Positions 6,120 through 57,305 of a DNA stretch of 64,000 nucleotides are shown here, one piece after another (the stretch's first letter is position 1; every line of letters begins with the position of its first letter). A program made the position numbers and the translations under genes. The notes under the pieces are model-generated. The model saw only the letters and a list, made by a program, of their open reading frames with translations, was not told where the DNA came from and searched no databases. This stretch comes from Hyphomonadaceae bacterium (GTDB lineage Bacteria; Pseudomonadota; Alphaproteobacteria; Caulobacterales; Hyphomonadaceae). Where the stretch lies: NCBI GenBank assembly GCA_022844345.1, contig JALHLU010000015.1, positions 9,680-73,679 of the forward strand, written 5' to 3'.

Positions 6120-6536
6120 TCAGTCAGAGAAATGAACCGCGCCCGCCACGACCTTGAGGCGGACTCGCGCGATAGCGTCACCGTTCGGAGACGCGAAGGT
6201 TGTCCTGAATGTCGCGGAGTGGCGAGCTCTCAGAGAGGCGATGGAGTTCCATGGAACCTCCCGCGCTTCGAGTATGGCGCCCGACTGGCTGATCGTCTCC
6301 GCATGGAGGTGTTCGTTGAAGGGCTTGTTGGGTCCGCGTGGGCGGGTCACAGATCCTGAAACGTCGACGCCTGTATCCGTGCGTGTGGACGAAACACCCC
6401 AGAGCTCGACCAGCTTTCCCTGAACGATGTCGACCGGGACAGGCGCAATGCTGACCGGCGCTGTGGCGCATCCTGCGACAAACGACAGTACCCCAGTAGC
6501 CACGAGCGTTTTCCATCTCGGCCGCACCCCCGCCAT
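6120..6536 (-). CDS. small lipoprotein of unknown function downstream of czcA (paralogue of 20346-20771)
   Basis: 138 aa counted from the ATG at 6536. Signal peptide plus lipobox (LSFVAGC). Motifs shared with the paralogue: PV..V.G....WGV, EH[LV]H.E, and a C-terminal H..D. Confidence 0.65.
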   Translation of the reverse strand: MAGVRPRWKTLVATGVLSFVAGCATAPVSIAPVPVDIVQGKLVELWGVSSTRTDTGVDVSGSVTRPRGPNKPFNEHLHAETISQSGAILEAREVPWNSIASLRARHSATFRTTFASPNGDAIARVRLKVVAGAVHFSD

Positions 6537-6703
6537 GAGGGCAAGGCAGGAATGTCGGGTCTCCACAGTCGTAGACCCTGCGTCGCGATTAATGCCTTCC
6601 ATCTGAGGTCGCTCCATCTTCCCTGGCTTGATGCAGAGCCATCCGAGATCGGGGCTCCCACAAGAATTCTTGGATCTCTCGTCGATGCCTCTGATCCATG
6701 ACC

Positions 6704-9700
6704 CTACTCTGCCGGCTGCAGCGCGGGTTCGGATCCGCCGCGTTGCCCTTGGGCCGGCTTGCGCTTGAGAACGAGCCTGCAAATTGCCGGCAGAACGAAC
6801 AGCGTGAGCGCCGTGGCGGTTATCAATCCGCCGATCACGACAGTCGCCAATGGCCGCTGCACTTCGGCGCCCGTTTCGGTCGCCAAGGCCATCGGCACGA
6901 AGCCAATGGCGGCAACGAGGGCAGTCATCAGAACAGGGCGATACCGCTCGATGGCGCCCTCGATGATCGCTACATCCAGGGCGATACCAGCGTCGAGGCG
7001 CTTGCGGATGCTGGTCATCATCACCAGACCGTTCAGCACAGCCACGCCCGACAAAGCGATGAAGCCAACTGCCGCGGAAATCGAGAAGGGCATCCCGCGG
7101 AGCACCAGCGCAAATACCCCGCCAGCAAGCGCCAACGGCACGGCCGAGAAGACTGCAAGCGCCGGCGCGATACCACCGAGAGCCATGTAGAGCAGCGCCA
7201 GGATGAGGACGAAGCAGATCGGAACGACGACTCCCAGGCGCGCCGACGCGGCCTGGAGGTTCTCGAACTGACCGCCCCACGCGATGTAGGCGCCTGCCGG
7301 AAGTTCGATCTGCGCCACTTTGGTCTGAGCTTCGGTGACAAAGCCGCCCAGGTCCCGGCCCCGGATGTTGGCCTGCACGACGATGCGCCGCTTGCCATTC
7401 TCGCGGCTGATCTGGTTCAGCCCTTCTGTGAAGGAGAACTCGGCCAGAGACCGTAGCGGGACGCTCAGTCTTTGCTGACCTTCTACGGGCGGCAGCATTA
7501 CGGGCAGCGCGCCGATCGAATTGACATCGTTGCGCAGCGAGTCCGGAACTCGGACGATGATATCGAAGCGACGGTCTCCCTCGAAGACGAGACCGGCTTC
7601 TCGTCCGCCAAGGGCGGAGGCGACAGCATCGGCAACCTCCTCGATGGTGAGCCCATTTCTTGCGATGGCGTCGCGGTTAAACTTGACGTCCAGAATCGGG
7701 AAGCCTTGGGTCTGTTCGACTTTCACATCTGCCGCGCCATCGATGGTTTGGAGCGCTTCAGCAATTTGCTGTGCGGCAGGTCCTAGTACGTCGAGATCGT
7801 CGCCATAGAGCTTGACGGCGACGTCTGAGCGAACGCCCGAGATAAGCTCATTGAAGCGCAGCTCGATCGGTTGGCTGAACTCAAAAGCATTTCCAACCTC
7901 CGCAGAAATTGCCGCCTCGATTTTGGCGACAAGCTCCTCCTTCGTGATCTTCTCCGGCCACTCATGCTCGGGCTTTACGATCACAAATCCGTCCGAGATG
8001 TTGACGGGCATTGGATCAGCAGCGACTTCCGCGGTCCCCGTCTTCGACATGACGCGTTCGACTTCCGGCAATGCCACAATGGCTTGCTCCACACGCTTTT
8101 GCATGTCGATTGACTGGTAAAGCGACGTCGACGGAATCCGAAGCGACTGAACCGCAAGATCCTTTTCGTCGAGCTGCGGCGTAAACTCCTGGCCCAGTGT
8201 GGTAAACAGATATCCGGCCACCACGAAGATAGCGGCTCCAGCTCCGATCACAGGCAAGGGCGCCCGCACGGCGGCCCGCAACAACGGCACGTAACGCGCT
8301 TTCGTAACGCGAACGACAGTCACCTCTTTCTCAGCAACCTTGCCGCGGATGAGGATCGCCACCATGGCAGGCACGAAGGTAAGCGACAGGATGAAGGCGC
8401 CAGCGAGCGCCAGCATAACGGTGATCGCCATCGGCGAAAACAATTTTGCCTCAACGCCGGTGAACGCCAGAAGCGGCACGTAGACCAGGAAAATGATCGC
8501 CTGGCCGAAGACAGTCGGCTGAATCATTTCCTTGGAGGCCTCAGTTACCTCAAACAGCCGCTCCTGGAGTGACAGCAGCCTCCCCTCATGGTGCTGTCGC
8601 TCGGCCAAGCGTCGCAGGCAGTTCTCGACAATGATGACGGCGCCATCGACAATCAGGCCGAAATCCAGCGCGCCGAGGCTCATCAGATTGCCCGACACGC
8701 CGAGTTCGTTCATGCCGATCGCGGTCATCAGCATCGAGAGGGGAATGACAAGCCCGGTGATCAGGGCAGCGCGGAAGTTACCGAGCATCACAAAGAGAAT
8801 GACAACGACGAAAAGAGCGCCTTCGGCAAGGTTCTTCTCAACAGTCGCCACAGTTGCGTTCACCAGCATCGAGCGATCGTAGGCTACGTTCGCTTCGATG
8901 CCCGGCGGCAAGGACTTTGCGACTTCTACCAGCCGCGCTCCGACATCAGATGCAACCGTTCGGCTGTTGGCGCCTGTCAGCATGAAGGCTGTGCCGATCA
9001 CGACTTCTTCGCCGTTCTTGGTGGCCGCCCCCGTGCGCAAGTCGCCGCCGATCTTGACTTCCGCGAGGTCCTGAACCGCGACCGGCACGCCTTCACGGTT
9101 GGCCACCACCGCGCGGCGAATCTCATCGAGGGTTCGCACACGCGCGTCTGCGCGGATCAGAAAGGACTCGCCTCCCCGCTGGAGGAAGTTGGCGCCGACA
9201 GACAGGTTGGCGCTCTCTAACGCCTGGGCGAGCTCCGCGAAGGACACGCCAAAGGCCGCAAGCTTGGCCGGGTCGGGTTCGATGACATACTGCTTCTCGT
9301 AGCCCCCGATAGAATCGATCCCCGCGACGTTCTCGATAGCGCGCATCTGGGGCCGGATGATCCAGTCCTGCACAGTCCGGAGGTAGGCGCCGCGCGCGAC
9401 CTCGTCTGCCAGAGTTTCACCTTCAACCGTCAGGAAGGTTCCATCAGGTTGCAAGCCAGGTTTGCCGGCGTTGGCGGCAACGAAGGCTGCATCCGGTTTG
9501 GCGAACTCGACCGTCCACATGAAGATGTCGCCAAGGCCCGTGGTGATCGGACCGATGGTCGGTTGAATGTCAGCGGGAAGCGCGTCGCGTGACTGGGCGA
9601 GGCGTTCGGTAACCTGCTGCCGCGCGAAGTAGATGTCAGTGCCTTCGGTGAACACGGCCGTCACCTGGCTGAAGCCATTGCGTGAGAGGGAGCGCGTGCT

Positions 9701-26529: not shown

Positions 26530-26934
26530 TCAGAGGAAAGTGCGCGGCGGCTTCTTGAGTGGCGAGAAGTGGCCGGAGACGCGAACAATGGATTGTTCGG
26601 ACCGGTTCAGAACCGCCGTGGAGATCAGTTCCGGAATTGCAGAAGACCCGCTGACGGTGGTGAAGGACGCGACCGCATGAACATGCATGCCGCCGTGTTC
26701 GGCGGGCGCGGTGTCGTTGCCGAGGTCGTCGTCGTGATGATCGAGGGCTTCGTCGTGGTCCTGGCCGTGGGGTTCATCATGATCATCATGGCCTGCATCC
26801 AGAGCGACGGCATGGATGGCGTAGCCAGTAGCGTCGTGATGATCGTGCGCATGCGCCGGGGCAGCCGCAATGAGGCCATAGCTTGCAAAGGCAAGCGTCA
26901 GGCAAAGGCTCACGAGGCGCCGGGCAAATGACAT
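26530..26934 (-). CDS. small secreted His/Asp-rich protein preceding the OMF gene
   Basis: 134 aa counted from the ATG at 26934. Signal peptide MSFARRLVSLCLTLAFASYGLIAAAPAHA. Contains HDHHD...HDDHDEPHGQDHDEALDHHDDD...HGGMHVH and ends in PLKKPPRTFL. Confidence 0.6.
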   Translation of the reverse strand: MSFARRLVSLCLTLAFASYGLIAAAPAHAHDHHDATGYAIHAVALDAGHDDHDEPHGQDHDEALDHHDDDLGNDTAPAEHGGMHVHAVASFTTVSGSSAIPELISTAVLNRSEQSIVRVSGHFSPLKKPPRTFL

Positions 26935-27311
26935 AGATTCAAACTGGCAGCGAATTGTTGCATTTTGCTGAACACGTCCCTTTAACCCCGAAATAGAGCT
27001 ACGGGAATTGCACTCGCTCAGCAGGTGCAGCAATTTCACGCCATCGTGTGCGGATTCGCTGGCATGCCCGGAGCATCAGACGCAGCTCGCAGCGCACTAC
27101 AGACGCTTGCACGCTGGTGCGCGGTTGCGGCCTTCCGCATTTTCAGCCGCCACCTGCGCTACGAGCGAGCAATGTCCCGATCCACGAAAAGACCGCTTTG
27201 AACTCACCCATGGCCTGCAAACCTGGTTGGACAATTCCCCTGGCAGGGTCGAAGGTCGATCTATGCAGGCGCCCGAACCGAGGCGACACAGTCTCGCGAA
27301 CAGTGGTGAGT

Positions 27312-28346
27312 ATGCCTATGAAAATGGCTCGTCTGTTTTGTCTGGCGTTAGCCGCAATCGGCGCGACGGCGACGGCTCAAGAGGTTTCGAAATACACTCC
27401 GTCCCGGACAAGCTGGGGGGCGCCGGACCTGCAGGGCGTGTGGAACAATACGTCGCTCACTCAACTGGAGCGACCTTCACGGATAGATAAGCTCGCGGTC
27501 AGCGCAGAAGAAGCAGCGTTTCTGGCCCGCCAGCACACCTATACACGCGCAGCCTATCAAGACGGCAGTCAGTCCAGACTGGATACAGAGTCGTCCCGGC
27601 GCTTGCTGGCCGACAAGAACACCTCACGCGCTTACAACAGTTTCTGGCTGGATCCCGGAACGGGCTACGCTCAGGTGAGAGGCGAATACCGCACGTCGTG
27701 GATCACAGAGCCAGGTGATGGCCGCATTCCCTATCGCGACCCAGCCAGCGCAACACGCCCTCGGACGCAGATATTCGATGGACCTGAAGCGCGGCCTCAG
27801 TCGGAACGATGTCTGATGAGCTTTACGGGCGGGGCCGGGCCCGTGATGAACAGCGGTCTGTACAACAGCAACTACCAGATTGTGCAGACGCCCGGCTATG
27901 TGATGATTCTCAGCGAGATGATCCATGATGTCCGCATCATCCCCATGGGAGGCCAGCATGCATCGCGCGACATTCCGAAATGGGGCGGTGATGCGATCGG
28001 CTGGTATGAGGGCGACACGCTCGTAGTCGAGACGGTGAACCCCAACCCCGGGCAGCGGTCATACATTTCCGCAGCCGGAAAGCTAACTGAGCGCTTCACC
28101 CGCTGGAGCAATGGGCAAATCGTCTATGAGTTCACCGTAGACGACCCGACGCTTTATACGAAAACATGGAACGGCGAGATTGCGCTCAACGCTTCAAAGC
28201 AGCCTTTGTATGAGTACGCATGCCATGAAGGAAACTACGCTCTCCCCAGTATACTGAACGGCGCCCGCGTCCTTGAGCGTGAAGGACGTGAGCAACCTCC
28301 GATCAAGGAACCATACCCCGGCGTTGATGTTTCGGAGGGCCAGTAG
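27312..28346 (+). CDS. secreted protein of unknown function
   Basis: 344 aa counted from the ATG at 27312. Signal peptide MPMKMARLFCLALAAIGATATAQE. A conserved-looking YEYACHEGNY motif lies near the C-terminus. No family name that I can support. Confidence 0.6.
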   Translation: MPMKMARLFCLALAAIGATATAQEVSKYTPSRTSWGAPDLQGVWNNTSLTQLERPSRIDKLAVSAEEAAFLARQHTYTRAAYQDGSQSRLDTESSRRLLADKNTSRAYNSFWLDPGTGYAQVRGEYRTSWITEPGDGRIPYRDPASATRPRTQIFDGPEARPQSERCLMSFTGGAGPVMNSGLYNSNYQIVQTPGYVMILSEMIHDVRIIPMGGQHASRDIPKWGGDAIGWYEGDTLVVETVNPNPGQRSYISAAGKLTERFTRWSNGQIVYEFTVDDPTLYTKTWNGEIALNASKQPLYEYACHEGNYALPSILNGARVLEREGREQPPIKEPYPGVDVSEGQ

Positions 28347-28864: not shown

Positions 28865-29194
28865 TCAGCTTGGCGTCTTCATGCTCATCATGCCCGAATG
28901 CATTTTCATCATCGACGCGCAGCGTTCGTCTTTCGTCATCTCTGCATGAGGCATCTTGTGACACGCCATCATGACTGCCATGTCCGCTTCCGACATTTTC
29001 ATGCTGGTCATCATGCTGGTGCAACCAGGGCTCTTCATCATGTCTTCGTGCGACATGGACATGCACGATTGCATCATCATGTGATCCGCGTCGGCCATCT
29101 TCATGTCGGCTCGCGGCGCTGGAGCTTGAGCGCAGCCTGCAGCAGCGAAGGCAATCGCGGCGATTGCGAATGCAGCACGTTTTGACGAAATCAT
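28865..29194 (-). CDS. Met/Cys-rich small lipoprotein (putative periplasmic soft-metal binder)
   Basis: 109 aa. GGGAGA RBS and lipobox AAAGC. The mature part is dominated by Met, with four C-containing repeats (QSCMSM, PGCTSMM, MACHKM, RCASMM). Confidence 0.65.
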   Translation of the reverse strand: MISSKRAAFAIAAIAFAAAGCAQAPAPRADMKMADADHMMMQSCMSMSHEDMMKSPGCTSMMTSMKMSEADMAVMMACHKMPHAEMTKDERCASMMKMHSGMMSMKTPS

Positions 29195-29409
29195 GGTTAT
29201 TCTCCCTAAGGCCCGCCGGTGGGTGGGCAAATACAGAACGCCTGAAATGAGGCACATCGTGGCGTACGAACCTCGGCTGATGCTCCAAGCAAGCTATGGC
29301 CAAGCATTCGCAATAAGAGCTGGACAATGTCTTGCGTTGGATCAAGCTGACGGTCTTTGACGCGACACAATCTTGTAGGCGTTATTCACCGCACAGGAGG
29401 GCGCGCGAC

Positions 29410-30732
29410 TTGACTGACAGCGTCCTCCCTATTTCGTGCCAATCCACCGGCTGCCCGCCGGGCGACTCCGTCGCTCGCGCGCGAGAACTTGCAAACGAGT
29501 TGAATCGCAGCTGCTTCTGCATCACGCTCGACCGCCACGCTTTGGCAACGGCGATGCAGGCGGTTGCTGCTGTTCCTGATTTTTACGCGACCCATATTGT
29601 GAGCCGGCCTCATCTGTTCGCGAATGTGCCGGTGTTCCTGCCGGAGTCTGATCGTGACGCGATGCTGGCAATCGTGCTCGCGATCGAGAAAACCGCCCGG
29701 CTCCCCGCCTACATCGATGCCGTATTGAAGTGGGCGCCTGATATTGCGCTGCGCGATTTTGGTCCGGCCGGCGCATTCATGGGATACGATTTTCATCTTG
29801 GTTCAGAGGCGCCTCGCCTCATCGAAATCAACACGAACGCCGGCGGCGCTTTTTTGAATGCCTTCAGTGCGCGTGCGCAGCTGGCCTGTTGCGACATAGT
29901 CGAACCGCTCAAGAAGGGTACGACCGTGGGAGGGTTTGACGAGGCCGTGGTCACGATGTTTGAGAGCGAGTGGCGGCGGCAGCGTGGCGCGGGGCGGCCC
30001 CAGACCGTCGCGATCATCGATGATGCGCCAACGGAGCAGTATCTCTATCCCGAGTTCCTGCTGGCCCGGCAGCTGCTTGAAGCTCAGGGCGTCTCGACCA
30101 TAATAGCCGATCCAGCAGAACTTTCCTACGTGGGTGGAAAGCTTCGTGCAGGTGAAACCGCCGTCGATCTTGTCTACAACCGCCTGGTTGATTTCTCACT
30201 CACCGAGGAGCGCCACAAGACACTGCGCGATGCCTATCTTGATGGCGCTGTCGTGGTGACGCCCAACCCCCGCACGCACGCACTGTTCGCCGACAAGCGA
30301 AATTTGGTGCTACTATCGGATGTGGACCAATTGCGCGGCTGGGCCGTTGCGCCTGATGCCATCCAGACGCTGGCATCTATTCCCAAGGCAATTCACGTCA
30401 CACACGACAACGCTGAGCAACTATGGTCCCAGCGCAAAGGGTTGTTCTTCAAACCGGTTGCAGGCCACGGGGGCAAAGCGGTCTATCGCGGCGACAAGCT
30501 GACGAAATCGGTCTGGTCCGGGATACTCGTCTCCGAGTACATCGCACAGGACATCGCCCCACCCAGCGAACGCCTCGTGAAGATCGGCGATGCGCCGCTG
30601 CCAAGAAAGATCGACGTGCGCCTCTATACCTATGAGGGAAAGCTGCTGTTGGCGGCGGCTCGGCTTTACCAAGGCCAGACGACAAACTTCCGCACTGAAG
30701 GCGGCGGTTTCGCCCCTGTGCATTTTCTTTGA
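29410..30732 (+). CDS. ATP-grasp-like amide ligase candidate (glutathionylspermidine-synthase-like motif order) with Cys-rich N-terminus, paralogue 1
   Basis: The TTG start at 29410 has AGGAGG 9 nt upstream and aligns with the paralogue's MTDASLP. Motifs: NRSCFCITLDR, MGYDFHL...PRLIEINTNAGGAFL, FFKPVAGHGGKAVYRG, DVRLYTYEGKLLLAAARLYQGQTTNFRTEGGGFAPV. Confidence 0.6.
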   Translation: MTDSVLPISCQSTGCPPGDSVARARELANELNRSCFCITLDRHALATAMQAVAAVPDFYATHIVSRPHLFANVPVFLPESDRDAMLAIVLAIEKTARLPAYIDAVLKWAPDIALRDFGPAGAFMGYDFHLGSEAPRLIEINTNAGGAFLNAFSARAQLACCDIVEPLKKGTTVGGFDEAVVTMFESEWRRQRGAGRPQTVAIIDDAPTEQYLYPEFLLARQLLEAQGVSTIIADPAELSYVGGKLRAGETAVDLVYNRLVDFSLTEERHKTLRDAYLDGAVVVTPNPRTHALFADKRNLVLLSDVDQLRGWAVAPDAIQTLASIPKAIHVTHDNAEQLWSQRKGLFFKPVAGHGGKAVYRGDKLTKSVWSGILVSEYIAQDIAPPSERLVKIGDAPLPRKIDVRLYTYEGKLLLAAARLYQGQTTNFRTEGGGFAPVHFL

Positions 30733-30846: not shown

Positions 30847-31113
30847 TCAGCGCCGGAAGACGCCGACGAGTTCTTCGATGACCTTTTCCTGCTCTGAAGC
30901 GTTCTTCGAGTTCATAGCGCGGTGCACGCAATGGCCAAGGTGTTGCCGCAACAGGTCGCTTTCGATGCGCGCGAGCGCAGCACGGGCCGCTTCGATCTGT
31001 GTCACCACATCAATGCAATAGCGGTCCTCCTCGACCATTTTCGCGATGCCGCGAACCTGCCCTTCTACCCGGTTCAGATTCTTCAGAACCTTCTCGGAAA
31101 CCGATTTTTCCAT
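30847..31113 (-). CDS. csoR: CsoR-family Cu(I)-sensing repressor
   Basis: 88 aa counted from the ATG at 31113, DUF156 fold. x-C-H-C ligand pattern (RYCIDV ... HLGHC). Divergent from the Cu ATPase gene. Confidence 0.88.
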   Translation of the reverse strand: MEKSVSEKVLKNLNRVEGQVRGIAKMVEEDRYCIDVVTQIEAARAALARIESDLLRQHLGHCVHRAMNSKNASEQEKVIEELVGVFRR

Positions 31114-31114
31114 A

Positions 31115-31154
31115 TACCCCTCCCGGGTACTTGATTGATACCCCCATAGGGTAT
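31115..31154. promoter_or_regulatory. two CsoR-type operator dyads in the csoR/copA intergenic region
   Basis: TACCC-CTCCC-GGGTA (31115-31129) and ATACCC-CCATA-GGGTAT (31138-31154). GC-tract-centred dyads are typical of CsoR operators. Confidence 0.7.
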
Positions 31155-31170: not shown

Positions 31171-33672
31171 ATGCAAGCCCCGGAGGGCGCCATGGCGCAT
31201 ACCCACCCTGAAGGATCTGAACTGAAAGATCCCGTCTGCGGCATGACGGTGAAACCAGATACGCCCCATCGCGAAACGCACGACGGCCACGAGGTGCTGT
31301 TCTGCAGCGCGGGCTGCAAAACGAAATTCCAGGCCGAGCCTGGTCGATATCTGAAACCTGCCGCCAAGACCGAACACAGCTGCTGTTCCGCGGATGGGGC
31401 CAAGGCTGGGCACGCTAGCGGTCAGGATGCCGGGAGCCATCATCACCTCCATTCACACGCTCCATCCCCTGCACCTGCTACAGCCTCCGCTCCTGCCGGC
31501 GCGAAATGGACCTGCCCGATGCATCCGGAGATTGTGCGGGATGGGCCGGGCTCCTGCCCGATCTGCGGAATGGCGCTCGAGCCGATGATGCCGACGGCCG
31601 AAGCAGGGCCGAACCCCGAGCTCGCCGACATGTCCCGTCGCTTCTGGGTGGGTCTGGTCCTGGCGTTGCCGGTGCTAGTTCTGGAGATGGGCCGTCACTT
31701 ATTCAACGTCGATGCTCTTGTACCTCCGCAAATCAATGCGTGGATCCAGTTTGGCCTCGCGACACCGGTAGTCCTTTGGGCGGGTTGGCCATTCTTCGAA
31801 CGGGGCTATGCTTCGCTTGTCAACCGAAGCCTCAACATGTTCACGCTGATTGCGCTCGGGACGGGAGTGGCATGGACCTACAGCGTGGTCGCCCTGCTCT
31901 TCCCCTCGGCGTTTCCGCCAGAGTTCCGCGGCCCACATGGCGATGTAGCCGTCTATTTTGAAGCGGCCGCCGTCATCATAGTGCTTGTGCTCCTCGGGCA
32001 GGTTCTGGAGCTGGGCGCACGCGAGCGTACGGGGGGCGCCATCCGCGCCCTGCTCGATCTTGCTCCCAAGACTGCGCGCCGCATCAGTGACGGCGAAGAA
32101 GCGGAAGTACCGCTTGATGCAATCATGGTCGGCGATCGGTTGCGCGTCCGCCCTGGTGAGAAGACGCCGGTTGACGGCGTTGTCATCGACGGTCGCTCCA
32201 CGGTCGATGAGTCGATGGTTACCGGCGAATCCATGCCTGTCACGCGGAGCGTCGGCGACGCGGTCATTGCGGGCACGCTCAACCAGACCGGCGCGCTCGT
32301 GATCGAAGCCAAACGCGTCGGCCGCGACACCATGCTGTCGCAGATCGTCCAGCTGGTTGCCGACGCGCAGCGCAGCCGTGCGCCGATTCAGCGCCTGGCA
32401 GACAAGGTATCAGGCTGGTTCGTACCTGCAGTGATCGCTATTGCCGTCCTGGCGTTTATCGGCTGGTGGGCGTTCGGTCCGCAGCCCTCCTTCACCTATG
32501 GACTGATCGCTGCCGTTTCCGTTCTGATCATCGCGTGTCCGTGCGCGCTTGGCCTCGCCACCCCCATGTCCATCATGGCGGGTGTTGGTCGCGCAGCACG
32601 TCAGGGTGTCCTTATCCGCAACGCTGAGGCGCTGGAGCGCTTCGAGAAGGTCAATACTCTGGTTCTCGACAAGACCGGAACACTGACTGAGGGCAAGCCA
32701 GGTGTTGTCGCGATCACTACGGTTGCAGAGACAAGCGAAGCTGACCTGTTGCGCGCAGCCGCAAGTCTTGAGCAGCGCAGCGAGCACCCCCTTGCGCTTG
32801 CCGTCGTCGCAGCCGCTAAAGAACGTGGCGTCTCGCTGGTCGAGCCGACGGAATTCGATTCGCCGACTGGAAAGGGCGTCATCGGCAAGGTCGAGAGCAA
32901 GACCGTCGCGCTTGGCGCCGAACGCTATCTGGATGAACTCGGTATCGCGACATCTTCCCTTCACTCCGAAGCAGAACGTCTGCGCGCGGATGGCGTCACG
33001 GCCATTTTTGTTGCGATCGACGGCAGACTAGCTGGCGTTGTGGGCATCGCTGACCGAATCAAGGCGACCACGCCTGAGTCGCTCAAGGCGCTGCGCGCCC
33101 AAGGCATCGAACTGGTGATGCTGACCGGCGACAATCGCACGACAGCCGAAGCCGTCGGCCGGACCCTCGGCATCACGAATGTCGAGGCAGAAGTCCTGCC
33201 TGAAGACAAATCGCGCATAGTCGAAAGGCTCAAGCGAGAAGGCCGCATCGTTGCGATGGCGGGAGACGGCGTCAATGACGCGCCGGCTCTGGCGGCGGCT
33301 GACGTTGGGATCGCCATGGGGACAGGCACGGATGTCGCCATCGAAAGTGCTGGCGTCACATTGCTCCGGGGCGATCTCAGCGGGGTTGTGAAAGGCCGGG
33401 CTGTGTCGCGCGCGACAATGGCGAACATCCGGCAGAATCTGGTTTTTGCGTTCGGCTACAATGCCCTCGGGATCCCTGTTGCCGCTGGCCTTCTTTATCC
33501 AATCACGGGTCAGCTGCTGTCCCCCATGATCGCGGCGCTCGCCATGGCGTTGTCCTCGGTATCGGTAATCGTGAACTCGCTGAGGCTGGGGGCCACGCCG
33601 AACGACGGAGCACACGGGTCGGGCCAGCCACCGCTTCCGGCGCCAACCCGGTCAGGCGCTAGTTGCCACTAG
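31171..33672 (+). CDS. copA: Cu(I)-exporting P1B-1 ATPase
   Basis: 833 aa with CPC ([13 protein letters not shown]), YN (FGYNALGIP), MALSS, DKTGTLT and GDGVNDAP. The N-terminus carries a TRASH/YHS-like motif (DPVCGMTV...FCSAGC) and a CPMHPE...CPICGM ribbon instead of an HMA fold. Confidence 0.93.
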
Positions 33673-47469: not shown

Positions 47470-49389
47470 TCACTCAGCCGCCACGGCGGCGTAACCAGCA
47501 TCCGTCACTTCGAAGGAACCGGCTGCCATTGCCGTGATGATAAAGTCCGGCAGGTAGGCGACGCCGGCAAATGCCTCCTCGACTTTCGTCGCAAGCTCGT
47601 CGCGCTTCAACTTCGCGTAGGCCTTCAAGACGTCCGCGCGCTGGTCACAGGCCATGGCCTCGATGCGCGGGGCTGTCTCGACAGCTGCGATCAGTTGGGC
47701 CTTCGACAAGCGTGACCAGTAGCTGGCATCCGCCCGCCAGTGATGGCTCATGTCAATGTCCAGCGCCATCGCCAGGCGATCGGCACACGCACGTCGCGAA
47801 GCGTCCCCGGAGGCGCCCTTCTCATGCGTCAGATCAATCGCGGCAGCCGTCAAAACCGCGAGGATGCCGAGGAGGTCCGGCGCCGGTCGGGAAAGACACC
47901 ATTCCAGGACGTCGGCCTCCTGCGGAAGCCGGGCCGCCAAGCTGCCACGGGTGTCAGCAAACGCGTCATCGTCCTCGACAGACGCTGCGTGCGCGGAGAT
48001 GCCCACACCGGCGAGGTCGCACCTGAACGCGGACCGAGAGATGAACGCCGCGACCGCGACAGCCAGCGCCGTTTCAGGTCGCTCGGCGAGCCTCATCCGG
48101 ATTGCACGCGTGCGCGCCAGCGACAGGTCTCGGATAACCGTCTTCGGCAGATCAATATCAGAGGCAGGCCCCTGTCCTGCGGGCTCGACGTCAGGGATAT
48201 CCTCGTCCGTCTGACCCGCTTCCTCCCTGGCGGCCTTCGCAAGGAGCGCACGCACAGTCTTCTCATCGTCCTGCCGAATGAACCCGCATGTGGCGCATGA
48301 ATGTCCGTCGAAATCGATCGAAAGCACGACGCCCGCATGGGCGATCAGCGTCGGCGGCCAGACGCGTGCGGCTTGACGGATGGTTTCCAGTTGGCCGGCG
48401 AGCGTGTCACGGGCTTCCCAGCGCGGATCGTCCTCGACGCTGTCCTGGTCAAGCGCTTCGTCGAGCGTGTCGATCTCGGATTGCAAACGCTGAAGTTCCG
48501 CCTCTTCTTCCGGCGTCGCGTCGCGCCAGATGGGCTGAAGGCGTGAAGCCGCATAGCCATCAGGGCGTCCCTGTCCAAGATGGGCGTCGACCCAGCCCCA
48601 TCCCTGATCAAGCCAGGCTTGTCGCCCGGCTTCGAGTTTTTCTTCGGCCAGTCGGGCAACCAACGCTGGATCATCGATATACACTGCATCAGCATCAAAC
48701 AGATCACGTGTGACCGCGCCGCCTGCGCGTTCGTAGGCCTCGAGTCCAATGTATTTCACGAGACGGTCTGACGCGCGAACGCGCCCTTCCATGAGCCTTG
48801 CGCGCACCGACGTCGCGTGAGTCACGGGCTTTCCCAGGCTCTTGAACACCGCGTCCTGCTGCGCGTGATCCTCGACCAGGCAGAAGGCGCGCGCCGCATC
48901 GAGGCTGACATCGCCCCGCTTCCACGCAGCCTTGATCCGGGGCGACAATCCCGAAAGCGCGAGTCGCTGATCGACGTGGCGGCGTGTCACGCCAAAGCGA
49001 CGCGCAACATCCTCAGGTGTCCCGCCATCGGCGATCAGCGCGCCGTAGGCTTCCACCTCGTCAATCGCGTCCATGCCAACGCGATGAACATTCTCGGTCA
49101 GCGAAACTTCTCGCCCCTCTCCGATCGTCACAATATTGCAGGCAACCGGATGATCTTTCGGAATGATCTTGTCGCGCGCCAGCTGCTTCAATGCCGCCAG
49201 CCTGCGCCCGCCTGCGTCGACTTCGAATTTTCCATCTTGATTCGCGACGACGCAGAGGTTCTGCAGAAGACCGCATGCAGCGATGGAGGCGGCAAGCGCA
49301 TCGACATCGATCTTGCGATCCGTCTTTCTGACATTGCGCGGTGAAGCAACGAGCTTGTTGAGTGGAATCATTTGAAGAGCGGACGTCAT
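47470..49389 (-). CDS. large ParB/Srx-domain protein of conjugative elements
   Basis: 639 aa counted from the ATG at 49389, with an AAGGAG RBS. N-terminal ParB box (LVASPRNVRK...GGRRLAAL) and a long C-terminal extension. Confidence 0.85.
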   Translation of the reverse strand: MTSALQMIPLNKLVASPRNVRKTDRKIDVDALAASIAACGLLQNLCVVANQDGKFEVDAGGRRLAALKQLARDKIIPKDHPVACNIVTIGEGREVSLTENVHRVGMDAIDEVEAYGALIADGGTPEDVARRFGVTRRHVDQRLALSGLSPRIKAAWKRGDVSLDAARAFCLVEDHAQQDAVFKSLGKPVTHATSVRARLMEGRVRASDRLVKYIGLEAYERAGGAVTRDLFDADAVYIDDPALVARLAEEKLEAGRQAWLDQGWGWVDAHLGQGRPDGYAASRLQPIWRDATPEEEAELQRLQSEIDTLDEALDQDSVEDDPRWEARDTLAGQLETIRQAARVWPPTLIAHAGVVLSIDFDGHSCATCGFIRQDDEKTVRALLAKAAREEAGQTDEDIPDVEPAGQGPASDIDLPKTVIRDLSLARTRAIRMRLAERPETALAVAVAAFISRSAFRCDLAGVGISAHAASVEDDDAFADTRGSLAARLPQEADVLEWCLSRPAPDLLGILAVLTAAAIDLTHEKGASGDASRRACADRLAMALDIDMSHHWRADASYWSRLSKAQLIAAVETAPRIEAMACDQRADVLKAYAKLKRDELATKVEEAFAGVAYLPDFIITAMAAGSFEVTDAGYAAVAAE

Positions 49390-49653
49390 TTGGAACTCCT
49401 TCGAATTCCCGGGTGCATAGGCAATGCCGGGGGCCGCTCCGGCGGCCGACAGCGGTGGGCGCCTGCCGGTCAGGACGGCGCTCAAGGGCGAAGAGCGCAG
49501 CGTCCCTTGAACGGCGGACGCGGCAGGTGATGACGCAGAGGCCACGCCGAGCGGCTGAAGGCAGCACCGCGGCAAAGAGCCAAGCGCTTGCTCAAGCTGC
49601 AGTCAGCTGACCCATTTTAATGTCCGCTAGTCGCCGGAAAAGGGCACGAGGTC

Positions 49654-52702: not shown

Positions 52703-53329
52703 TCATCGCCCCAGCGCCAGCCCGCGCTGGACAGCAGGACGCTCGCCGACCTCTGCGAACCAGCGCCGGACGTTGGGCGTCTCACCGACAAGATCCGGAG
52801 TGTTGCGCGCCATTGAGTCCAGCGCCACCCGTATCCAGGGAAATACCGCGATGTCAGCAATCGAGTAGTCGCCGGCAAGAAACGCCTTCTCTCCCAGTTG
52901 CCTCTCCATCACACGCACCAGTCGCGCAGCTTCCTTCGAGAAGCGCGTGATTGCATAGGGACATTTTTCCGGAGCAATGCTGCGGAAGTGGTGGGACTGC
53001 CCGAACATCGGGCCGACATTGGCGACCTGCCAGACCGTCCAGCTGATGCACTCGGCCCTTCCTGCAGGCGTCCTGGGCATCAATCGATCGAACTTCTCGG
53101 CAAGGTAGATCAGAATCGACGCGGATTCGAAGACGGTCGCCGGCGTGTCCGTCCCATTGTCGATTATCGCAGGGATTTTCGAGTTCGGGTTGATCCGCCT
53201 GAATTCTGGCTTGAACTGCTCGCCCTGCTCCAGATTGACGAAGTGGACGCGATAGGCCGCTTCACACTCCTCCAGCATGATGGATATCTTGCGCCCGTTC
53301 GGGCTCCGTGCGGCGTAGAAATCAATCAT
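52703..53329 (-). CDS. Nu-class glutathione S-transferase (YfcG-like)
   Basis: The start at MIDFYAARSPNGRKISIMLEE aligns with the YfcG N-terminus. Contains NSKIPAIIDN and FESASILIYLAEK. Divergent from arsR. Confidence 0.8.
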   Translation of the reverse strand: MIDFYAARSPNGRKISIMLEECEAAYRVHFVNLEQGEQFKPEFRRINPNSKIPAIIDNGTDTPATVFESASILIYLAEKFDRLMPRTPAGRAECISWTVWQVANVGPMFGQSHHFRSIAPEKCPYAITRFSKEAARLVRVMERQLGEKAFLAGDYSIADIAVFPWIRVALDSMARNTPDLVGETPNVRRWFAEVGERPAVQRGLALGR

Positions 53330-53420
53330 CGCGTCTGCCCCTTCATGGCTTTCCAACGCGACCATCGAAAATCGCGACTCCATCTTGCGTCGGCATCCAT
53401 ATTTCTATATTTCCCGAAAC

Positions 53421-53768
53421 ATGAAAGCAAAGCAAGCGATAACCGCTCTGTCCGCGCTTGCCCACGATGGGCGGCTCGCGGCCTTTCGGCTCTTGATCAA
53501 GGCGGGCCCGGAAGGCATGGCGGCAGGTGACATTGCCGCGCGCCTCAAGATGCCGCCGTCATCGCTTTCAACAAACCTGCTGCTTCTTTCGAACGCTGGC
53601 CTTGTCTCTTCGCGTCGCGATGGCCGCTCCATCATCTATCGCGCAGATTACGGCGCAATGCGCGACCTGCTCGGCTTCCTCATCGAAGACTGCTGCAACG
53701 GCTCATCTGAAATCTGCACACCACTCGCCGTAACACTCGCAACCTGCGCTCCTGGAAAGTGCCGCTGA
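53421..53768 (+). CDS. arsR: ArsR/SmtB-family As(III)-responsive repressor
   Basis: Start at MKAKQAITAL. wHTH is DIAARLKMPPSSLSTNLLLLSNAGLV. C-terminal Cys cluster EDCCNGSSEIC, resembling the A. ferrooxidans-type site. Confidence 0.85.
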   Translation: MKAKQAITALSALAHDGRLAAFRLLIKAGPEGMAAGDIAARLKMPPSSLSTNLLLLSNAGLVSSRRDGRSIIYRADYGAMRDLLGFLIEDCCNGSSEICTPLAVTLATCAPGKCR

Positions 53769-54292
53769 TGTCCAATGATCGCGTCTATAACGTGCTGTTC
53801 CTCTGCACCGGCAACTCAGCCCGCTCCATTCTCGCGGAGGTCTTGCTCAATCAAGGTGGCAGGGGGCGGTTCAAGGCCTATTCGGCGGGATCGTTTCCGA
53901 AGGGCGAGGTGAACCCTCATGCAATCCAGCTGCTGAAGACCCTGAAGCTGCCGACGGACGACCTTCGGTCGAAGTCCTGGGACGAGTTCGCCAAGCCGGG
54001 CGCACCACCGCTCGATTTCATCATCACCGTCTGCGACAATGCTGCGGGCGAGGTATGCCCGATCTGGCCAGGCAAGCCGGTGACCGCGCACTGGGGCATT
54101 CCTGATCCAGCCGCCGCCGAAGGATCGGACGCGGAGATTGCCGCGACGTTTGCAGCGGCAGCCCGCCAGCTCCGCACGCGGATTGACCTGCTTCTCAACC
54201 TGCCGCTGGCGTCGATTGATCGCATGGCGATCCAGAACCGCTTGAAGGATATCCAGGCCAAGGCAAGCCAATCCGACAACGGCGCCGCATGA
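53768..54292 (+). CDS. arsC: arsenate reductase, LMW-PTPase type
   Basis: CTGNSARS P-loop and a downstream VCDNAAGEVCP Cys pair. The ATG overlaps the arsR stop by 1 nt; GTG at 53759 is an alternative start. Confidence 0.88.
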   Translation: MSNDRVYNVLFLCTGNSARSILAEVLLNQGGRGRFKAYSAGSFPKGEVNPHAIQLLKTLKLPTDDLRSKSWDEFAKPGAPPLDFIITVCDNAAGEVCPIWPGKPVTAHWGIPDPAAAEGSDAEIAATFAAAARQLRTRIDLLLNLPLASIDRMAIQNRLKDIQAKASQSDNGAA

Positions 54293-54960
54293 CGACCGCG
54301 CTGTCTCGTCAAGTCGCCGCCGAACTCCTCGGCTCCATACTTCTCACAGGCGTTGTTATCGGCTCGGGCATCCTCGCGAGCCGTCTAGCCGGCGGCAACG
54401 ATGCGGTCGCGCTACTCGGCAATACGCTGGCCACGGCGGCAATCCTCTACGTTCTAATCCACGCGCTCGGCCCCGTCTCCGGCGCGCACTTCAACCCGGC
54501 CGTCACGCTGATCATGGCCCTGCGGCGTCAACTGACGCCAACGGCGGCCATCGTCTATGTGCTTGCGCAGATCGCCGGCTGCATTCTCGGGGCCTGGCTG
54601 GCGCACGCCATGTTCGAATTGCCGGTCCTGCAGGCCTCGACGCATGTCCGGGCTGGGCCCGCGCAAGTGTTGAGCGAAGCCGTCGCAACCTTTGCCCTGC
54701 TCTTCGCCATCCTGTTTGTGTCGCGATGGAAAGCTGAGGCCGTCCCCGCAGCGGTCGCGCTTGTGATCACGGCTGGCTATTGGTGGACGGCCAGCACATC
54801 CTTCGCCAACCCCGCCATCAGCATTGCGCGCGCGATGAGCGATACGTTCGCGGGCGTTCGTCCGGCAGACGTGCCCGGCTTCATCGCCGGTCAGATCGCG
54901 GGCGCCTTGCTCGCCTGGGCCGCCAGCGTCGCACTCCTTCCGAAGGACAAGCAAACGTGA
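54289..54960 (+). CDS. aqpS: MIP-family aquaglyceroporin, As(III) channel (AqpS-like)
   Basis: 223 aa with two NPA boxes (HFNPAVT, ANPAISIARA). ATGA overlap with arsC. Confidence 0.88.
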   Translation: MTTALSRQVAAELLGSILLTGVVIGSGILASRLAGGNDAVALLGNTLATAAILYVLIHALGPVSGAHFNPAVTLIMALRRQLTPTAAIVYVLAQIAGCILGAWLAHAMFELPVLQASTHVRAGPAQVLSEAVATFALLFAILFVSRWKAEAVPAAVALVITAGYWWTASTSFANPAISIARAMSDTFAGVRPADVPGFIAGQIAGALLAWAASVALLPKDKQT

Positions 54961-54985: not shown

Positions 54986-55408
54986 ATGAGCACATTGCTC
55001 GAATACACTGTGAGCGCCCGGCGTGTGGACAGCTCCGGCAGCGTTGCGAACGCCAAGAAAGCCGAGATAGCGCTCGACACTGGTCTTGGAGGCAGGTCCG
55101 ACGCGCTGAATCCTGCAGAGTTGCTTTTGGCTTCGCTTGCCGCCTGCATGATCAAGGGCGCCGAGCGCGTCGCTCCCATGCTCAATTTTGACCTTCACGG
55201 CATGACGGTCCGGCTGCACGCCGTCAGAATTGATGCGCCGCCTTCGATCAAGACGATCGACTATGAAATCGTGGTTGAATGTGACGAACCCGAACGACGC
55301 CTTGAGCTGCTGCATGCAAACATCCGTAGATACGGCACGATCTCCAATACATTGGCGTCTGTTGTCCAACTCACTGGTTCGATTCGACGCGCGGATGCCG
55401 AAGAATGA
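54986..55408 (+). CDS. OsmC/Ohr-family protein
   Basis: 140 aa. The LNPAELLLASLAACMIKG motif is typical of OsmC-family thiol peroxidases. Confidence 0.75.
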   Translation: MSTLLEYTVSARRVDSSGSVANAKKAEIALDTGLGGRSDALNPAELLLASLAACMIKGAERVAPMLNFDLHGMTVRLHAVRIDAPPSIKTIDYEIVVECDEPERRLELLHANIRRYGTISNTLASVVQLTGSIRRADAEE

Positions 55409-56736
55409 CCGATGCCTCCCTTCCCGACTGCGAAAGATCACCGTGCGCATCGCGCGAGTTGGCAGCCGAACTCAATCGAACCTGCTTCTGCATTTCTCTG
55501 GATCGGGAGGGTCTGGCCGACGCCATGCGAAAGGCGTCCGGCGACGACGACTTTTTCGTGAAATACATCGAGAGCCGCCCACATCTCTTCTCGAACCTGC
55601 CGATTTTCCTGCCGCGCGCCGATCTCGACAGCATGATGGCGACGGTGGCTGCAATCGAAGATGTCGCCCGGCTGCCCGGCTACCAGGAAGCCGCAGCCGC
55701 GTGGGCTCCAGCCATCGCTCGCCAAGACCACGGCCCGCGCGGCGCAATGATGGGCTATGACTTTCACCTGGCGGGTGACGCACCTCGCCTCATCGAGATC
55801 AATACCAATGCCGGCGGCGCGTTCCTGAACGCCTTCAGCGCGAAGGCGCAGCTCGCTTGCTGCGCGGAGGTTGCAACGGCAATTGCGGATGCACGGGCAT
55901 CGAATTTCGACAGCGATGCGATCGCAATGTTCGAGGCTGAGTGGCGGCTGCAGGGGCGCGCTGGCCGACCAAAGACCATAGCCATCGTCGATGACGCGCC
56001 CGAAGCGCAGTATCTCCATCCAGAATTTCTTCTGGCGCAGCGACTGTTCGAGGCCAACGGCATGGTCTCAATGATCGCCGACCCAACCGAGCTGGCTTAT
56101 GATGGCCACGTCCTTACCTGCCGCGGTGAAGCGATCGCTGTCGTCTACAACCGGCTGGTGGATTTTGATCTGTCCCAGCCGCAACATGATGCATTGCGCC
56201 GGGCCTATAACGATGGCGCCATCGTCCTGACGCCCACCCCACACAATCACGCGACACTCGCCGACAAGCGCAATCTCACCTTGCTGACGGACGCCAACCT
56301 TCTTCGGAACTGGGGCGTCTCCGAAGCGACGCGCACCGCTTTGGCGAGCATACCGAAGGCTGTCCTTGTAACACCTGATAATGCCGCCGACCTCTGGCAA
56401 AGGCGCAAGTCTCTGTTCTTCAAGCCGGTTGCCGGACACGGCGGCAAGGCCGTCTATCGTGGGGACAAGCTCACCCGATCAACCTGGACTGACATTCTTG
56501 GAACGGCCTACATCGCCCAGGATCTGGCCCCGCCTGGAGAGCGGTTGATCAAGCTGGGAGGCGAGACAGTGGCGCGAAAGGTTGATGTGCGCCTGTACAC
56601 CTATGACGGGCGGCTGCTGCTCGCGGCTGCTCGCTTGTATCACGGCCAGACGACCAACTTCAGAACCGAGGGGGGTGGTTTTGCGCCGGTGTTCTTTCTC
56701 CGGGCCAACAACGGAGGCTCTTCCAGCAACTTCTGA
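55405..56736 (+). CDS. ATP-grasp-like amide ligase candidate (GspS-like motif order) with Cys-rich N-terminus, paralogue 2
   Basis: 443 aa. ATGA overlap with the OsmC-like gene. Shares long identical blocks with 29410-30732 (NRTCFCISLDR, PRLIEINTNAGGAFLNAFSAKAQLACC, FFKPVAGHGGKAVYRGDKLT, GQTTNFRTEGGGFAPV). Confidence 0.6.
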   Translation: MTDASLPDCERSPCASRELAAELNRTCFCISLDREGLADAMRKASGDDDFFVKYIESRPHLFSNLPIFLPRADLDSMMATVAAIEDVARLPGYQEAAAAWAPAIARQDHGPRGAMMGYDFHLAGDAPRLIEINTNAGGAFLNAFSAKAQLACCAEVATAIADARASNFDSDAIAMFEAEWRLQGRAGRPKTIAIVDDAPEAQYLHPEFLLAQRLFEANGMVSMIADPTELAYDGHVLTCRGEAIAVVYNRLVDFDLSQPQHDALRRAYNDGAIVLTPTPHNHATLADKRNLTLLTDANLLRNWGVSEATRTALASIPKAVLVTPDNAADLWQRRKSLFFKPVAGHGGKAVYRGDKLTRSTWTDILGTAYIAQDLAPPGERLIKLGGETVARKVDVRLYTYDGRLLLAAARLYHGQTTNFRTEGGGFAPVFFLRANNGGSSSNF

Positions 56737-56738
56737 AA

Positions 56739-57305
56739 TCAGAACAACATCAAGATGGCTGCGCGCCCGACAATGTCTCCAGTCGACGTGGCGCCAAAAT
56801 ACCGCCCGTCATACGAGTCGGCCCCCTCGCCCAACAGAAAAACGTGCCGATCGGTGAGCGTCACACACCCCTGCCAGAACGGCAGCGCCACACCGTCCGA
56901 CCCTTTGAGCTTTGCATGGGCCACAGCGCGACCGTTGACCGTCACCACTTCCTGATGTCTGCAGACTGTTTCGCCCGCTGAGGCTGCAAGCGTTTTGATC
57001 AGCAGTTTGCCCCTTGGAAGGATGCCGCGATTCTCCAAGTCTTCGGCCAATTCGGGCGAAGGTAAGACGACAACGCGGTCGCCAACTGCCCAACCTGATC
57101 GCTCGACACTGTAGACTCCAGCTGGCGCGCTGGCCGACGTATTCCAGACAAGTTGCGCCGAGCGAGCCGTCGCCGGAATCGCAAGCATCGCAACACAGAC
57201 CGCGGACACGCCAAGGACAGCAGTCTGACGGCCTCGCGATTTACTTGAACGGCTTCCGTTTCGCGGTTGTGGCTCCAAGAGGGCTGTTCGAATGTTATCG
57301 ACCAT
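56739..57305 (-). CDS. traF: conjugative transfer signal peptidase TraF (S26 family)
   Basis: 188 aa with a TM anchor. NTSASAPAGVY (Ser nucleophile region) and DSYDGRYFG motifs. Confidence 0.85.
   Translation of the reverse strand: MVDNIRTALLEPQPRNGSRSSKSRGRQTAVLGVSAVCVAMLAIPATARSAQLVWNTSASAPAGVYSVERSGWAVGDRVVVLPSPELAEDLENRGILPRGKLLIKTLAASAGETVCRHQEVVTVNGRAVAHAKLKGSDGVALPFWQGCVTLTDRHVFLLGEGADSYDGRYFGATSTGDIVGRAAILMLF

Follow-up and report, generated by a model that had tools for sequence, protein, structure and literature searches.

Two paralogous genes in a 64,000-nucleotide stretch of DNA from a Hyphomonadaceae bacterium (GenBank assembly GCA_022844345.1, contig JALHLU010000015.1, positions 9,680 to 73,679 of the forward strand; hereafter called the window) encode proteins which, judging from a structure model, almost certainly adopt a circularly permuted ATP-grasp fold and which, judging from the conservation of their motifs, are very probably active enzymes. 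One gene (copy 1) lies in a copper module, the other (copy 2) at the end of an arsenic operon. The proteins belong to a distinct family outside the curated bounds of the Pfam model GSP_synth, the eukaryotic glutathione synthetase (GS) models and the Pfam model CP_ATPgrasp_2. Members of this family have been recruited repeatedly and independently, as a single gene, into copper, arsenic and occasionally mercury islands. Tentatively, and with somewhat less than even confidence in the model as a whole, both genes are proposed to encode a cytoplasmic, catalytically competent amide ligase acting on a thiol metabolite.

Both open reading frames were read directly from the window, and their products are 61% identical over the full length (BLASTP, E = 0). 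This agrees with an initial annotation of the same DNA, which had placed two paralogues at these positions and had listed their shared blocks in the order observed here: Y-D-F-H...P-R-L-I-E-I-N-T-N-A-G-G is followed by F-F-K-P-V-A-G-H-G-G-K-A-V-Y, then by Y-I-A-Q-D and finally by D-V-R-L-Y-T-Y...G-Q-T-T-N-F-R-T-E-G-G-G-F-A-P-V. In the numbering of copy 2, which is used throughout, the permutation can be read in the sequence as the succession E131, K340, D394 and R420, and the same order is found in GspS and YgiC. The annotation had given this order for the two proteins, and the actual E. coli K-12 sequences match it. Its further statement that the order is not the classical one also holds, with the E-x-N at residue 131 lying ahead of all other motifs. 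A classical GshB- or RimK-like ATP-grasp protein, in which the Lys/Gly loop is followed by D-x-R, R-x-N-x-x-x-G-G and finally E-x-N, was rejected since E-x-N precedes the Lys/Gly loop, and neither a RimK nor the GSH-S_ATP model was matched.

For the fold assignment, copy 2 was modelled with AlphaFold2 from a 35-sequence alignment (mean predicted local distance difference test score 86.7, predicted template modelling (TM) score 0.88). A Foldseek search of the PDB with this model gave 66 matches at E <= 0.001; each of the 50 matches listed is a ligase of the circularly permuted ATP-grasp type or carries an annotation to that effect, and the alignments cover nearly the whole chain. For these relatives, Foldseek reported a probability of 1.00 and E values from 1e-15 to 1e-10. 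The human, yeast, potato and soybean glutathione (GSH) or homoglutathione (hGSH) synthetases rank highest (E 1e-15 to 1e-13), followed by 3n6x, Cp1B (9cjn), E. coli GspS, YjfC/YgiC and trypanothione synthetase. The GspS/YgiC-type ATP-grasp fold suggested in the annotation is thus borne out, whereas membership of the GspS family is not, and the best structural match is a eukaryotic-type GSH/hGSH synthetase instead of GspS.

At the sequence level, the family is far more isolated. Pfam and NCBIfam scans of copies 1 and 2 gave nothing above threshold and only faint traces of ATP-grasp models. The Pfam model CP_ATPgrasp_2 (PF14403), with a gathering threshold of 32 bits, was matched by copy 2 at 11.5 bits (E 0.15) and by copy 1 not at all; falling below the curated cut-off, the window proteins were not accepted as members and would be divergent outliers at best. 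Among 87 diverse relatives scanned, weak matches to four ATP-grasp models were obtained, with PF14403 touched by 22 of them at E <= 0.1 (best E 2.7e-07), which supports the fold independently at the sequence level. One relative has a precomputed match to PF14403, precomputed Pfam domains are absent from most members, and a single member from Azospira is labelled 'Circularly permuted type 2 ATP-grasp protein' in UniRef. For GspS, neither copy matched Pfam GSP_synth at E <= 1, and profile comparisons gave no significant value (hhalign E 0.12 against YgiC and 0.19 against GspS; unfiltered hmmsearch E 0.15); membership of the GspS family was rejected on these grounds. In the non-significant hhalign alignment, the E-x-N block of copy 2 is aligned with D318...E330-x-N332 of GspS. 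Likewise, neither the eukaryotic GS models (Pfam GSH_synth_ATP and GSH_synthase, NCBIfam) nor, by profile, any GS sequence of the PDB was matched. No relative at all was found by searching PDB sequences with a single sequence or the 35-sequence profile, and a match to MobB at E 0.09 in this search was treated as chance.

The family itself is large. A word-indexed homologue search yielded at least 8000 scored candidates, and an exhaustive profile search gave 3078 representatives at the level of 50%-identity clusters, 1061 of them at E <= 1e-30. Where a source names such proteins, the name is "hypothetical protein". Unusually long members were checked for domain fusions, and their extensions proved only low-complexity or unassignable. 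Conservation was assessed in 139 representatives (36-52% identical to copy 2) and in an 87-sequence A2 alignment. Invariant or nearly so among the 139 are D119-F-H121, E131, N133, N135, G137-G138, R250, D253-F254, P277, P279, K288, K340-P341, G353, Q372, D394, R396, R410, G414-Q415, N418, R420 and G425. D119, H121, E131, N133, N135 and G137 are also invariant or nearly invariant in the A2 alignment. K340 and P341 occur in 138 of the 139 (the remaining one has a gap) and are invariant in the A2 alignment, with G344 and G346 conserved as well. Individual counts at the C-terminal positions are 135 for D394, 138 for R396, 135 for N418, 132 for R420 and 137 for G425, and D394, R396, N418 and G425 are invariant in the A2 alignment. 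By analogy with RimK and GshB, K340 and the Gly-rich loop are presumed to bind ATP and D394, E131 and N133 to bind Mg, while the C-terminal N-x-R-x-x-G-G-G presumably holds the acyl-phosphate or the carboxylate substrate. As the ATP, Mg and substrate motifs are kept across such diverged sequences, a catalytically competent enzyme is predicted.

A conserved set of cysteines comes on top of this catalytic core. C27 is present in 111 and C29 in 107 of the 139 representatives (N-x-x-C-x-C in about 80%), and roughly 60% have the vicinal pair C152-C153. The two motifs co-vary: C-x-C occurs in 103 sequences, of which 80 retain one or both Cys of the vicinal pair and many others have a Cys a few residues downstream, and 20 of the 25 sequences without C-x-C also lack CC. 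In the metal-linked members of the two context sets described below (n = 70), C-x-C is found in 69 and CC in 69. The initial annotation had regarded an N-terminal Cys cluster as unique to the two paralogues. The motifs do exist, but N-x-x-C-x-C and CC are ancestral to most relatives and not restricted to the pair. The extreme N-terminal C-x4-C, listed there as part of the cluster, turned out to be clade-specific, as it occurs in 5 of the 70 metal-linked members and sits in a low-confidence, disordered tail of the copy 2 model.

For the genomic context, all open reading frames within 6 kb of a homologue were clustered in 80 loci from species-representative genomes, whose members share 52% identity or more with copy 2 (set 1). 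A copper- or arsenic-type neighbour is present in at least 50 of the 80 loci (63%), with many contigs being truncated, and nearly all of the leading neighbour clusters consist of metal(loid) genes. The most frequent neighbour cluster is a P1B-type ATPase with YHS and HMBD domains (32 loci), followed by ArsR (14), an ICMT/PEMT-type methyltransferase (12), multicopper oxidase (11), DUF2933 (8), CopC, ACR3 and CusB (7 each), MerR, DUF302 and histidine kinase (6 each) as well as glutathione S-transferase (GST), ArsC, DUF305 and RND proteins (5 each). An independent set of more divergent, metagenomic members (set 2) is a mixed sample in which most members carry the cysteines, though Cys-less ones were sought. 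Here, copper or arsenic neighbours accompany 16 of the 50 members that have both Cys motifs, as compared with 1 of the 21 in which the motifs are incomplete or missing (Fisher p = 0.011). Enrichment near metal-resistance genes, as expected in the initial annotation, is hence found as a strong association in both sets, whereas confinement to such islands is not.

Single loci illustrate the variety of these modules (X denoting the family member). In H. neptunium, the order is CsoR-CusF-MCO-CopB-CopA-X-DUF305 (MCO, multicopper oxidase); a Moraxella osloensis plasmid carries pcoA-pcoB-DUF305-copA-tatABC-X in a Tn3-type unit; and on plasmid pMR68 of Pseudomonas sp. K-62, merT/P/F/A/B and a CoaC-like flavoprotein gene precede X. 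A curated record for pSinB of Sinorhizobium M14 agrees with the metal-island context. The mercury link was found in pMR68 only, no mer genes lying beside other members; 'MerA' matches at 27% identity near members were identified as dihydrolipoyl dehydrogenases. The nearby regulator varies by locus and may be CsoR, a MerR-type protein, ArsR or a two-component histidine kinase. In a neighbour-joining tree, copper-linked and arsenic-linked members are interspersed, which points to repeated recruitment into different soft-metal modules without specialisation for one metal. The window copies fall into sister subclades, copy 1 together with the members from loci L007 and L008, which show the same CsoR-CopA-CopC-CopD arrangement as copy 1, and copy 2 together with those from L005 and L006.

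Genes directly joined to family members often encode thiol or redox enzymes. Translational coupling is frequent to OsmC, GST and an ArsH-like protein, and same-strand overlapping or abutting neighbours comprise OsmC (window, L005, L010, L014), an ArsH-like flavoprotein (L054, L055), thioredoxin (L082) and, furthermore, ArsR, ACR3 and the P1B-type ATPase. GST recurs beside ArsR and a member in the window, L005, L006, L012, L017 and L022, overlapping the start of the member by 4 nt in L017. On pMR68 (L086), a gene for a CoaC/HFCD-type cysteine-decarboxylase flavoprotein (6326-6862; N-terminal part of TIGR00521, E 2e-38) lies directly upstream of the member; at this one locus, ligase and Cys-decarboxylase would resemble the logic of CoaB/CoaC, for a cysteamine-type thiol. 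Neither a conserved partner gene nor a recurrent small or precursor-peptide open reading frame was found beside homologues.

In the proposed reaction, a carboxylate would be activated as acyl-phosphate and joined to an amine, as in all structural relatives. Since the gene travels without a conserved partner gene, both substrates would be ubiquitous host metabolites, with a Cys-containing low-molecular-weight thiol (gamma-Glu-Cys, glutathione or Cys) and an amino acid or polyamine as candidates. Because of the chemistry of the relatives and the coupled thiol-dependent enzymes, a Cys-containing thiol or peptide would be most plausible as the carboxylate substrate, or else Cys as the amine substrate. 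The product would enlarge or alter the pool of buffering thiols that is attacked by Cu(I), As(III) and Hg(II), and N-x-x-C-x-C and CC would together form one soft-metal-binding or redox-sensitive site, tuning activity or stability under metal stress. A more far-reaching version, in which the family represents a new class of enzymatic determinants of resistance to thiophilic metal(loid)s, is rather unlikely: a soft-metal-activated ATP-grasp ligase, sensing the metal through C-x-C/CC, would produce a new thiol-peptide or thiol-amine conjugate buffering or detoxifying Cu(I), As(III) and Hg(II), and would be spread singly among proteobacteria by transposons, plasmids and integrative and conjugative elements.

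Several observations weigh against a thiol ligase serving metal defence. Its thiol part would follow from guilt by association and from the chemistry of structural relatives. The Cys motifs also occur outside metal contexts, namely in 53-55 of 64 members without identified context and in 8-9 of 11 helicase-linked ones, and may instead form a structural Zn or Fe-S site. Three further distant members have non-metal contexts, and another clade on the tree shows no recognisable metal neighbours. In Rhodocyclales, a gene for a DinG/XPD-type (Helicase_C_2) helicase is co-transcribed with the member and overlaps its start by 4-8 nt in at least six loci, and the member is followed by genes for MobB, MoeA and a ThiS/MoaD-like protein (loci including L156, L161, L168, L123 and L109). 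This helicase and molybdenum cofactor (Moco) setting is non-mobile and wholly different, and any functional model must cover it. PPK2 is encoded directly upstream of the member in four loci, and phosphoketolase (seven loci), acetate kinase (four) and an AMP/thymidine-phosphorylase-like gene (five) recur beside members in alphaproteobacterial islands (the loci concerned include L021, L028, L034, L052, L035, L038, L065 and L073), an association with energy or nucleotide metabolism; PPK2, acetate kinase and phosphoketolase point to energy metabolism and not to thiols. Finally, a search upstream of copy 1 revealed neither an inverted repeat nor a convincing sigma-70 promoter nor a conserved block.

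Part of this evidence can be accommodated by other functions. The helicase coupling, together with that to OsmC, GST and the ArsH-like protein elsewhere, would suit a protein- or peptide-modifying ligase of the RimK/tubulin-tyrosine-ligase type, which would add amino acids to a C-terminal or side-chain carboxylate of a host protein; ATP-grasp enzymes do include protein modifiers, and the Pfam models TTL and R2K are weakly touched by single members. Its candidate targets would be the DinG-like helicase of Rhodocyclales or, in the islands, an enzyme of metal handling or thiol chemistry. Such a ligase is nevertheless unlikely: the coupled partner varies by locus, many island copies have none, and the close structural matches are all ligases of small molecules or short peptides. 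Moreover, no conserved small open reading frame lies nearby, and the failure to find any recurring gene for a partner protein or peptide speaks against a dedicated substrate protein encoded next to the ligase. The non-metal contexts in several clades and the recurring PPK2, phosphoketolase, acetate kinase and AMP/thymidine-phosphorylase-like neighbours would, in turn, be expected of a metabolic ligase with a housekeeping or general stress role and no tie to thiols or metals, either hitch-hiking on mobile DNA or belonging to a generic stress regulon, and working, for example, with PPK2, acetate kinase, phosphoketolase and nucleoside phosphorylase. This is clearly improbable in view of metal neighbours in 63% of the close relatives, of genes embedded in metal-regulated operons (arsR-arsC-MIP-osmC-X, ArsR-X, ArsR-ACR3-X, CopA-X) and of independent copper, arsenic and mercury associations across Alpha-, Beta- and Gammaproteobacteria and in Tn3-type units.

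The structural ranking raises the question of an alternative GSH/hGSH synthetase, which would join gamma-Glu-Cys to Gly or beta-Ala and provide extra GSH under metal stress. The top whole-chain Foldseek matches are indeed eukaryotic enzymes of this kind, GST genes recur nearby (one overlapping the start of a member), and the E-I-N-T of the family presumably resembles the Mg site of eukaryotic GS. All the same, this is quite doubtful: neither the Pfam eukaryotic GS models nor the PDB GS sequences are matched at the sequence level, the TM scores reach only 0.55-0.60 and are equalled by Cp1B and 3n6x, no gshA partner travels with the gene, and GS enzymes have no comparable Cys motifs. In addition, the hosts (Pseudomonas, Moraxella, alphaproteobacteria) normally have GshB already. 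A catalytically dead ATP-grasp scaffold, acting as cytoplasmic soft-metal-binding protein, chaperone or sensor via C-x-C/CC, would account for the Cys motifs in 69 of 70 metal-linked members and for their resemblance to the As(III)/Cu(I) sites of ArsR and ArsD. It is the remotest of the options considered: ATP, Mg and substrate motifs that stay (nearly) invariant at 36-52% identity are unexpected for a dead enzyme, and six to seven Cys in about 440 residues amount to a low binding capacity.

The coordinates of the two genes, their motifs and the surrounding features are compiled in Table 1.

Table 1 Features of the window around the two predicted ligase genes (positions count from the first letter of the window)
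Feature	Position	Strand	Remarks
Met/Cys/His-rich lipoprotein, 130 aa, lipobox AAAGC	28865-29257	-	divergent from copy 1; no Pfam match
AGGAGG Shine-Dalgarno sequence of copy 1	29395-29400	+	9 nt ahead of TTG; read from the sequence
Copy 1, predicted circularly permuted ATP-grasp protein, 440 aa	29410-30732	+	TTG start at 29410; copper module
csoR	30847-31113	-	convergent with copy 1; Pfam Trns_repr_metal, E 6e-27
Two likely CsoR-type operators, TACCC-N5-GGGTA, csoR/copA promoter	31115-31129, 31139-31153		two exact matches
Cu P1B-type ATPase with YHS and HMBD domains	31171-33672	+	Pfam; commonest neighbour of the family
ParB-like gene	47470-49575
Glutathione S-transferase gene	52703-53383	-	divergent from arsR; orthologous cluster identified as GST
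arsR	53385-53768	+	Pfam; overlaps arsC by 10 nt
arsC, low-molecular-weight protein tyrosine phosphatase (LMW-PTP) type	53759-54292	+	Pfam; overlaps MIP gene by 4 nt
MIP channel	54289-54960	+	Pfam; 25-nt gap to osmC
OsmC-like gene	54986-55408	+	4-nt overlap (ATGA) with copy 2; Pfam OsmC, E 2e-13
Copy 2, predicted circularly permuted ATP-grasp protein, 443 aa	55405-56736	+	ATG start; last gene of ars operon
Copy 2, N24-x-x-C27-x-C29-x-x-L-D33	55474-55503	+	candidate soft-metal/redox site, first half
Copy 2, Y118-D-F-H...L-I-E131-I-N133-T-N-A-G-G	55756-55818	+	predicted Mg/ATP-binding E-x-N strand, N-terminal to the Lys/Gly loop (circular permutation)
Copy 2, vicinal C152-C153 pair	55858-55863	+	candidate soft-metal/redox site, second half
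Copy 2, K340-P-x-x-G-x-G-G-K348	56422-56448	+	predicted ATP-binding Lys and Gly-rich loop
Copy 2, D394-x-R396...Q415-T-T-N418-x-R420-x-x-G-G-G425	56584-56679	+	predicted second Mg ligand and acyl-phosphate/substrate motif, C-terminus
TraF (S26 peptidase) gene	56739-57305
VirD4/TraG coupling protein gene	58604-60592
VirB11-type ATPase gene	61047-62036

The setting of copy 1 between a Met/Cys-rich lipoprotein gene and csoR/copA, as described in the initial annotation, was confirmed by coordinates and Pfam matches. The lipoprotein is extremely Met-rich and a candidate periplasmic Cu(I)-binding protein. Exact TACCC-N5-GGGTA palindromes occur in the whole window only as the pair at csoR/copA, with 0.22 expected at <= 1 mismatch, and these are likely the CsoR operators. 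CsoR control of copy 1 was considered and rejected, the boxes being confined to the csoR/copA promoter with none upstream of copy 1. When the region around copy 1 was compared with plasmids by megablast, the P-type ATPase gene alone was matched. Two further genes adjoin this module. The first encodes a secreted 169-aa protein with His/Asp-rich runs (HDHHD..., HDDHDEPHGQDHDEALDHHDDD) and no Pfam family (26530-27039, minus strand), next to the gene of an outer-membrane efflux protein. The other is an open reading frame of 335-432 aa, with uncertain start and no Pfam match (27048-28346, plus strand), located between the genes of the His-rich protein and the Met-rich lipoprotein.

Copy 2 closes the tightly packed operon arsR-arsC(LMWP)-MIP-osmC-X, and the translational coupling to OsmC at the end of an ars operon, already pointed out in the annotation, is evident from the 4-nt overlap and the Pfam match. 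At copy 2, a Hyphomonadaceae metagenome-assembled genome (L005) is 99% identical. In total, the metal genes of the window comprise three RND pumps, two P-type ATPases, a multicopper oxidase, CopC, CopD, CsoR, MerR and the ars operon. The ParB-like, TraF, VirD4/TraG and VirB11-type genes show that the whole metal-resistance region is the cargo of a conjugative element.

Two observations concern the islands of other members. On plasmid p1 of Moraxella osloensis (L085, 5272-8251), tatABC is placed between copA and the member within the Tn3-type copper-resistance unit; the host is associated with human skin and cerebrospinal fluid, and near-identical copies are present on several Moraxella and Psychrobacter plasmids. 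The ICMT/PEMT-type membrane methyltransferase paired with DUF2933 constitutes a very frequent and apparently uncharacterised copper-island module (L018, L025, L057, L059, L064, L075, L087 and others), which is accompanied by DUF5676 in pSinB.

Bacterial copper, arsenic and mercury islands are regarded as well catalogued in terms of efflux pumps, oxidases, reductases, chaperones and regulators. The kind of enzyme described here is already known, and automated sources hint at ATP-grasp for a few relatives. The link of a GS-fold ligase to such islands, together with a conserved Cys site, appears to be undescribed; no papers on the family were found in the literature searched, and a Brevundimonas paper on a 'new arsenic determinant' concerns folE. 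A widespread "hypothetical protein" without Pfam or NCBIfam family can now be addressed as a conserved, predicted ATP-dependent ligase recurring in metal islands. If a thiol metabolite is indeed made or modified, a biosynthetic arm would be added to bacterial soft-metal defence, following a logic comparable to that of phytochelatin or trypanothione in eukaryotes. This would also account for a gene that moves with resistance genes on mobile elements, among them plasmids from Moraxella associated with humans. The proposal is directly testable, as it deals with a single portable gene with clear catalytic and Cys residues for mutation, and E. coli hosts hypersensitive to Cu and As are in standard use.

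Among known systems, the Cys motifs of the family presumably resemble As(III) and Cu(I) sites found in the same kind of island, such as the C-x-C of ArsR and the vicinal Cys pairs of ArsD. The folds, however, are unrelated, and metal binding by the family would follow by analogy only. Within the fold, the CP_ATPgrasp_1 structure 3n6x (Mfla_0391) is a strong match (Foldseek E 8e-13), while CP_ATPgrasp_2 is the only curated model touched at the sequence level with low E among relatives; it differs in that the window proteins stay below its threshold and that the contexts found here are metal islands and a DinG/Moco operon. GspS, YgiC and YjfC share the same fold as well (Foldseek E 1e-11 to 1e-10). 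R316-M-D-F, E330-Y-N-A-D and K533-P-I-A-G-R-C-G of GspS compare with Y118-D-F-H, E131-I-N-T-N and K340-P-V-A-G-H-G-G-K of copy 2. The spacing from D to E is 12 residues in both, followed by about 200 residues to K-P-x-x-G/S. YgiC has no D-F motif and shows E115-N-N-A-D-T-P, then K302-P-I-F-S-R-E-G. In contrast to these proteins, the family lacks an amidase domain, and its Gly-rich loop reads K-P-x-x-G-x-G-G-K and not K-P-x-x-S-R-E-G.

The chemistry of these relatives is uniform in that all characterised ones link an amine with a small carboxylate or a peptide by way of an acyl-phosphate (PMC12568646). YgiC and YjfC are given as peptide-spermidine ligases (Pederick et al. 2023, as cited in PMC12568646), and fungal Cp1B, from E-64 biosynthesis, couples small carboxylic acid and amino acid (PMC12568646). 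Cp1B (9cjn) has the equal-best TM score of 0.60 and, like the proposed enzyme, is a stand-alone amide-forming ligase; it differs in sharing only 16% identity, in belonging to a fungal biosynthetic gene cluster and in having neither Cys motifs nor a metal link. The closest likeness is that to the eukaryotic-type GSH/hGSH synthetases (human 2hgs/8fbz, yeast 1m0w, soybean 3kal and potato 5oes; TM 0.55-0.60 over about 480 aligned columns), which are of similar size (about 440-470 aa) and are likewise permuted, their E-x-N strand preceding the Lys/Gly-rich loop. With 12-15% identity to these enzymes, the family is set apart by N-x-x-C-x-C and CC, by its bacterial hosts and by its place in mobile metal islands.

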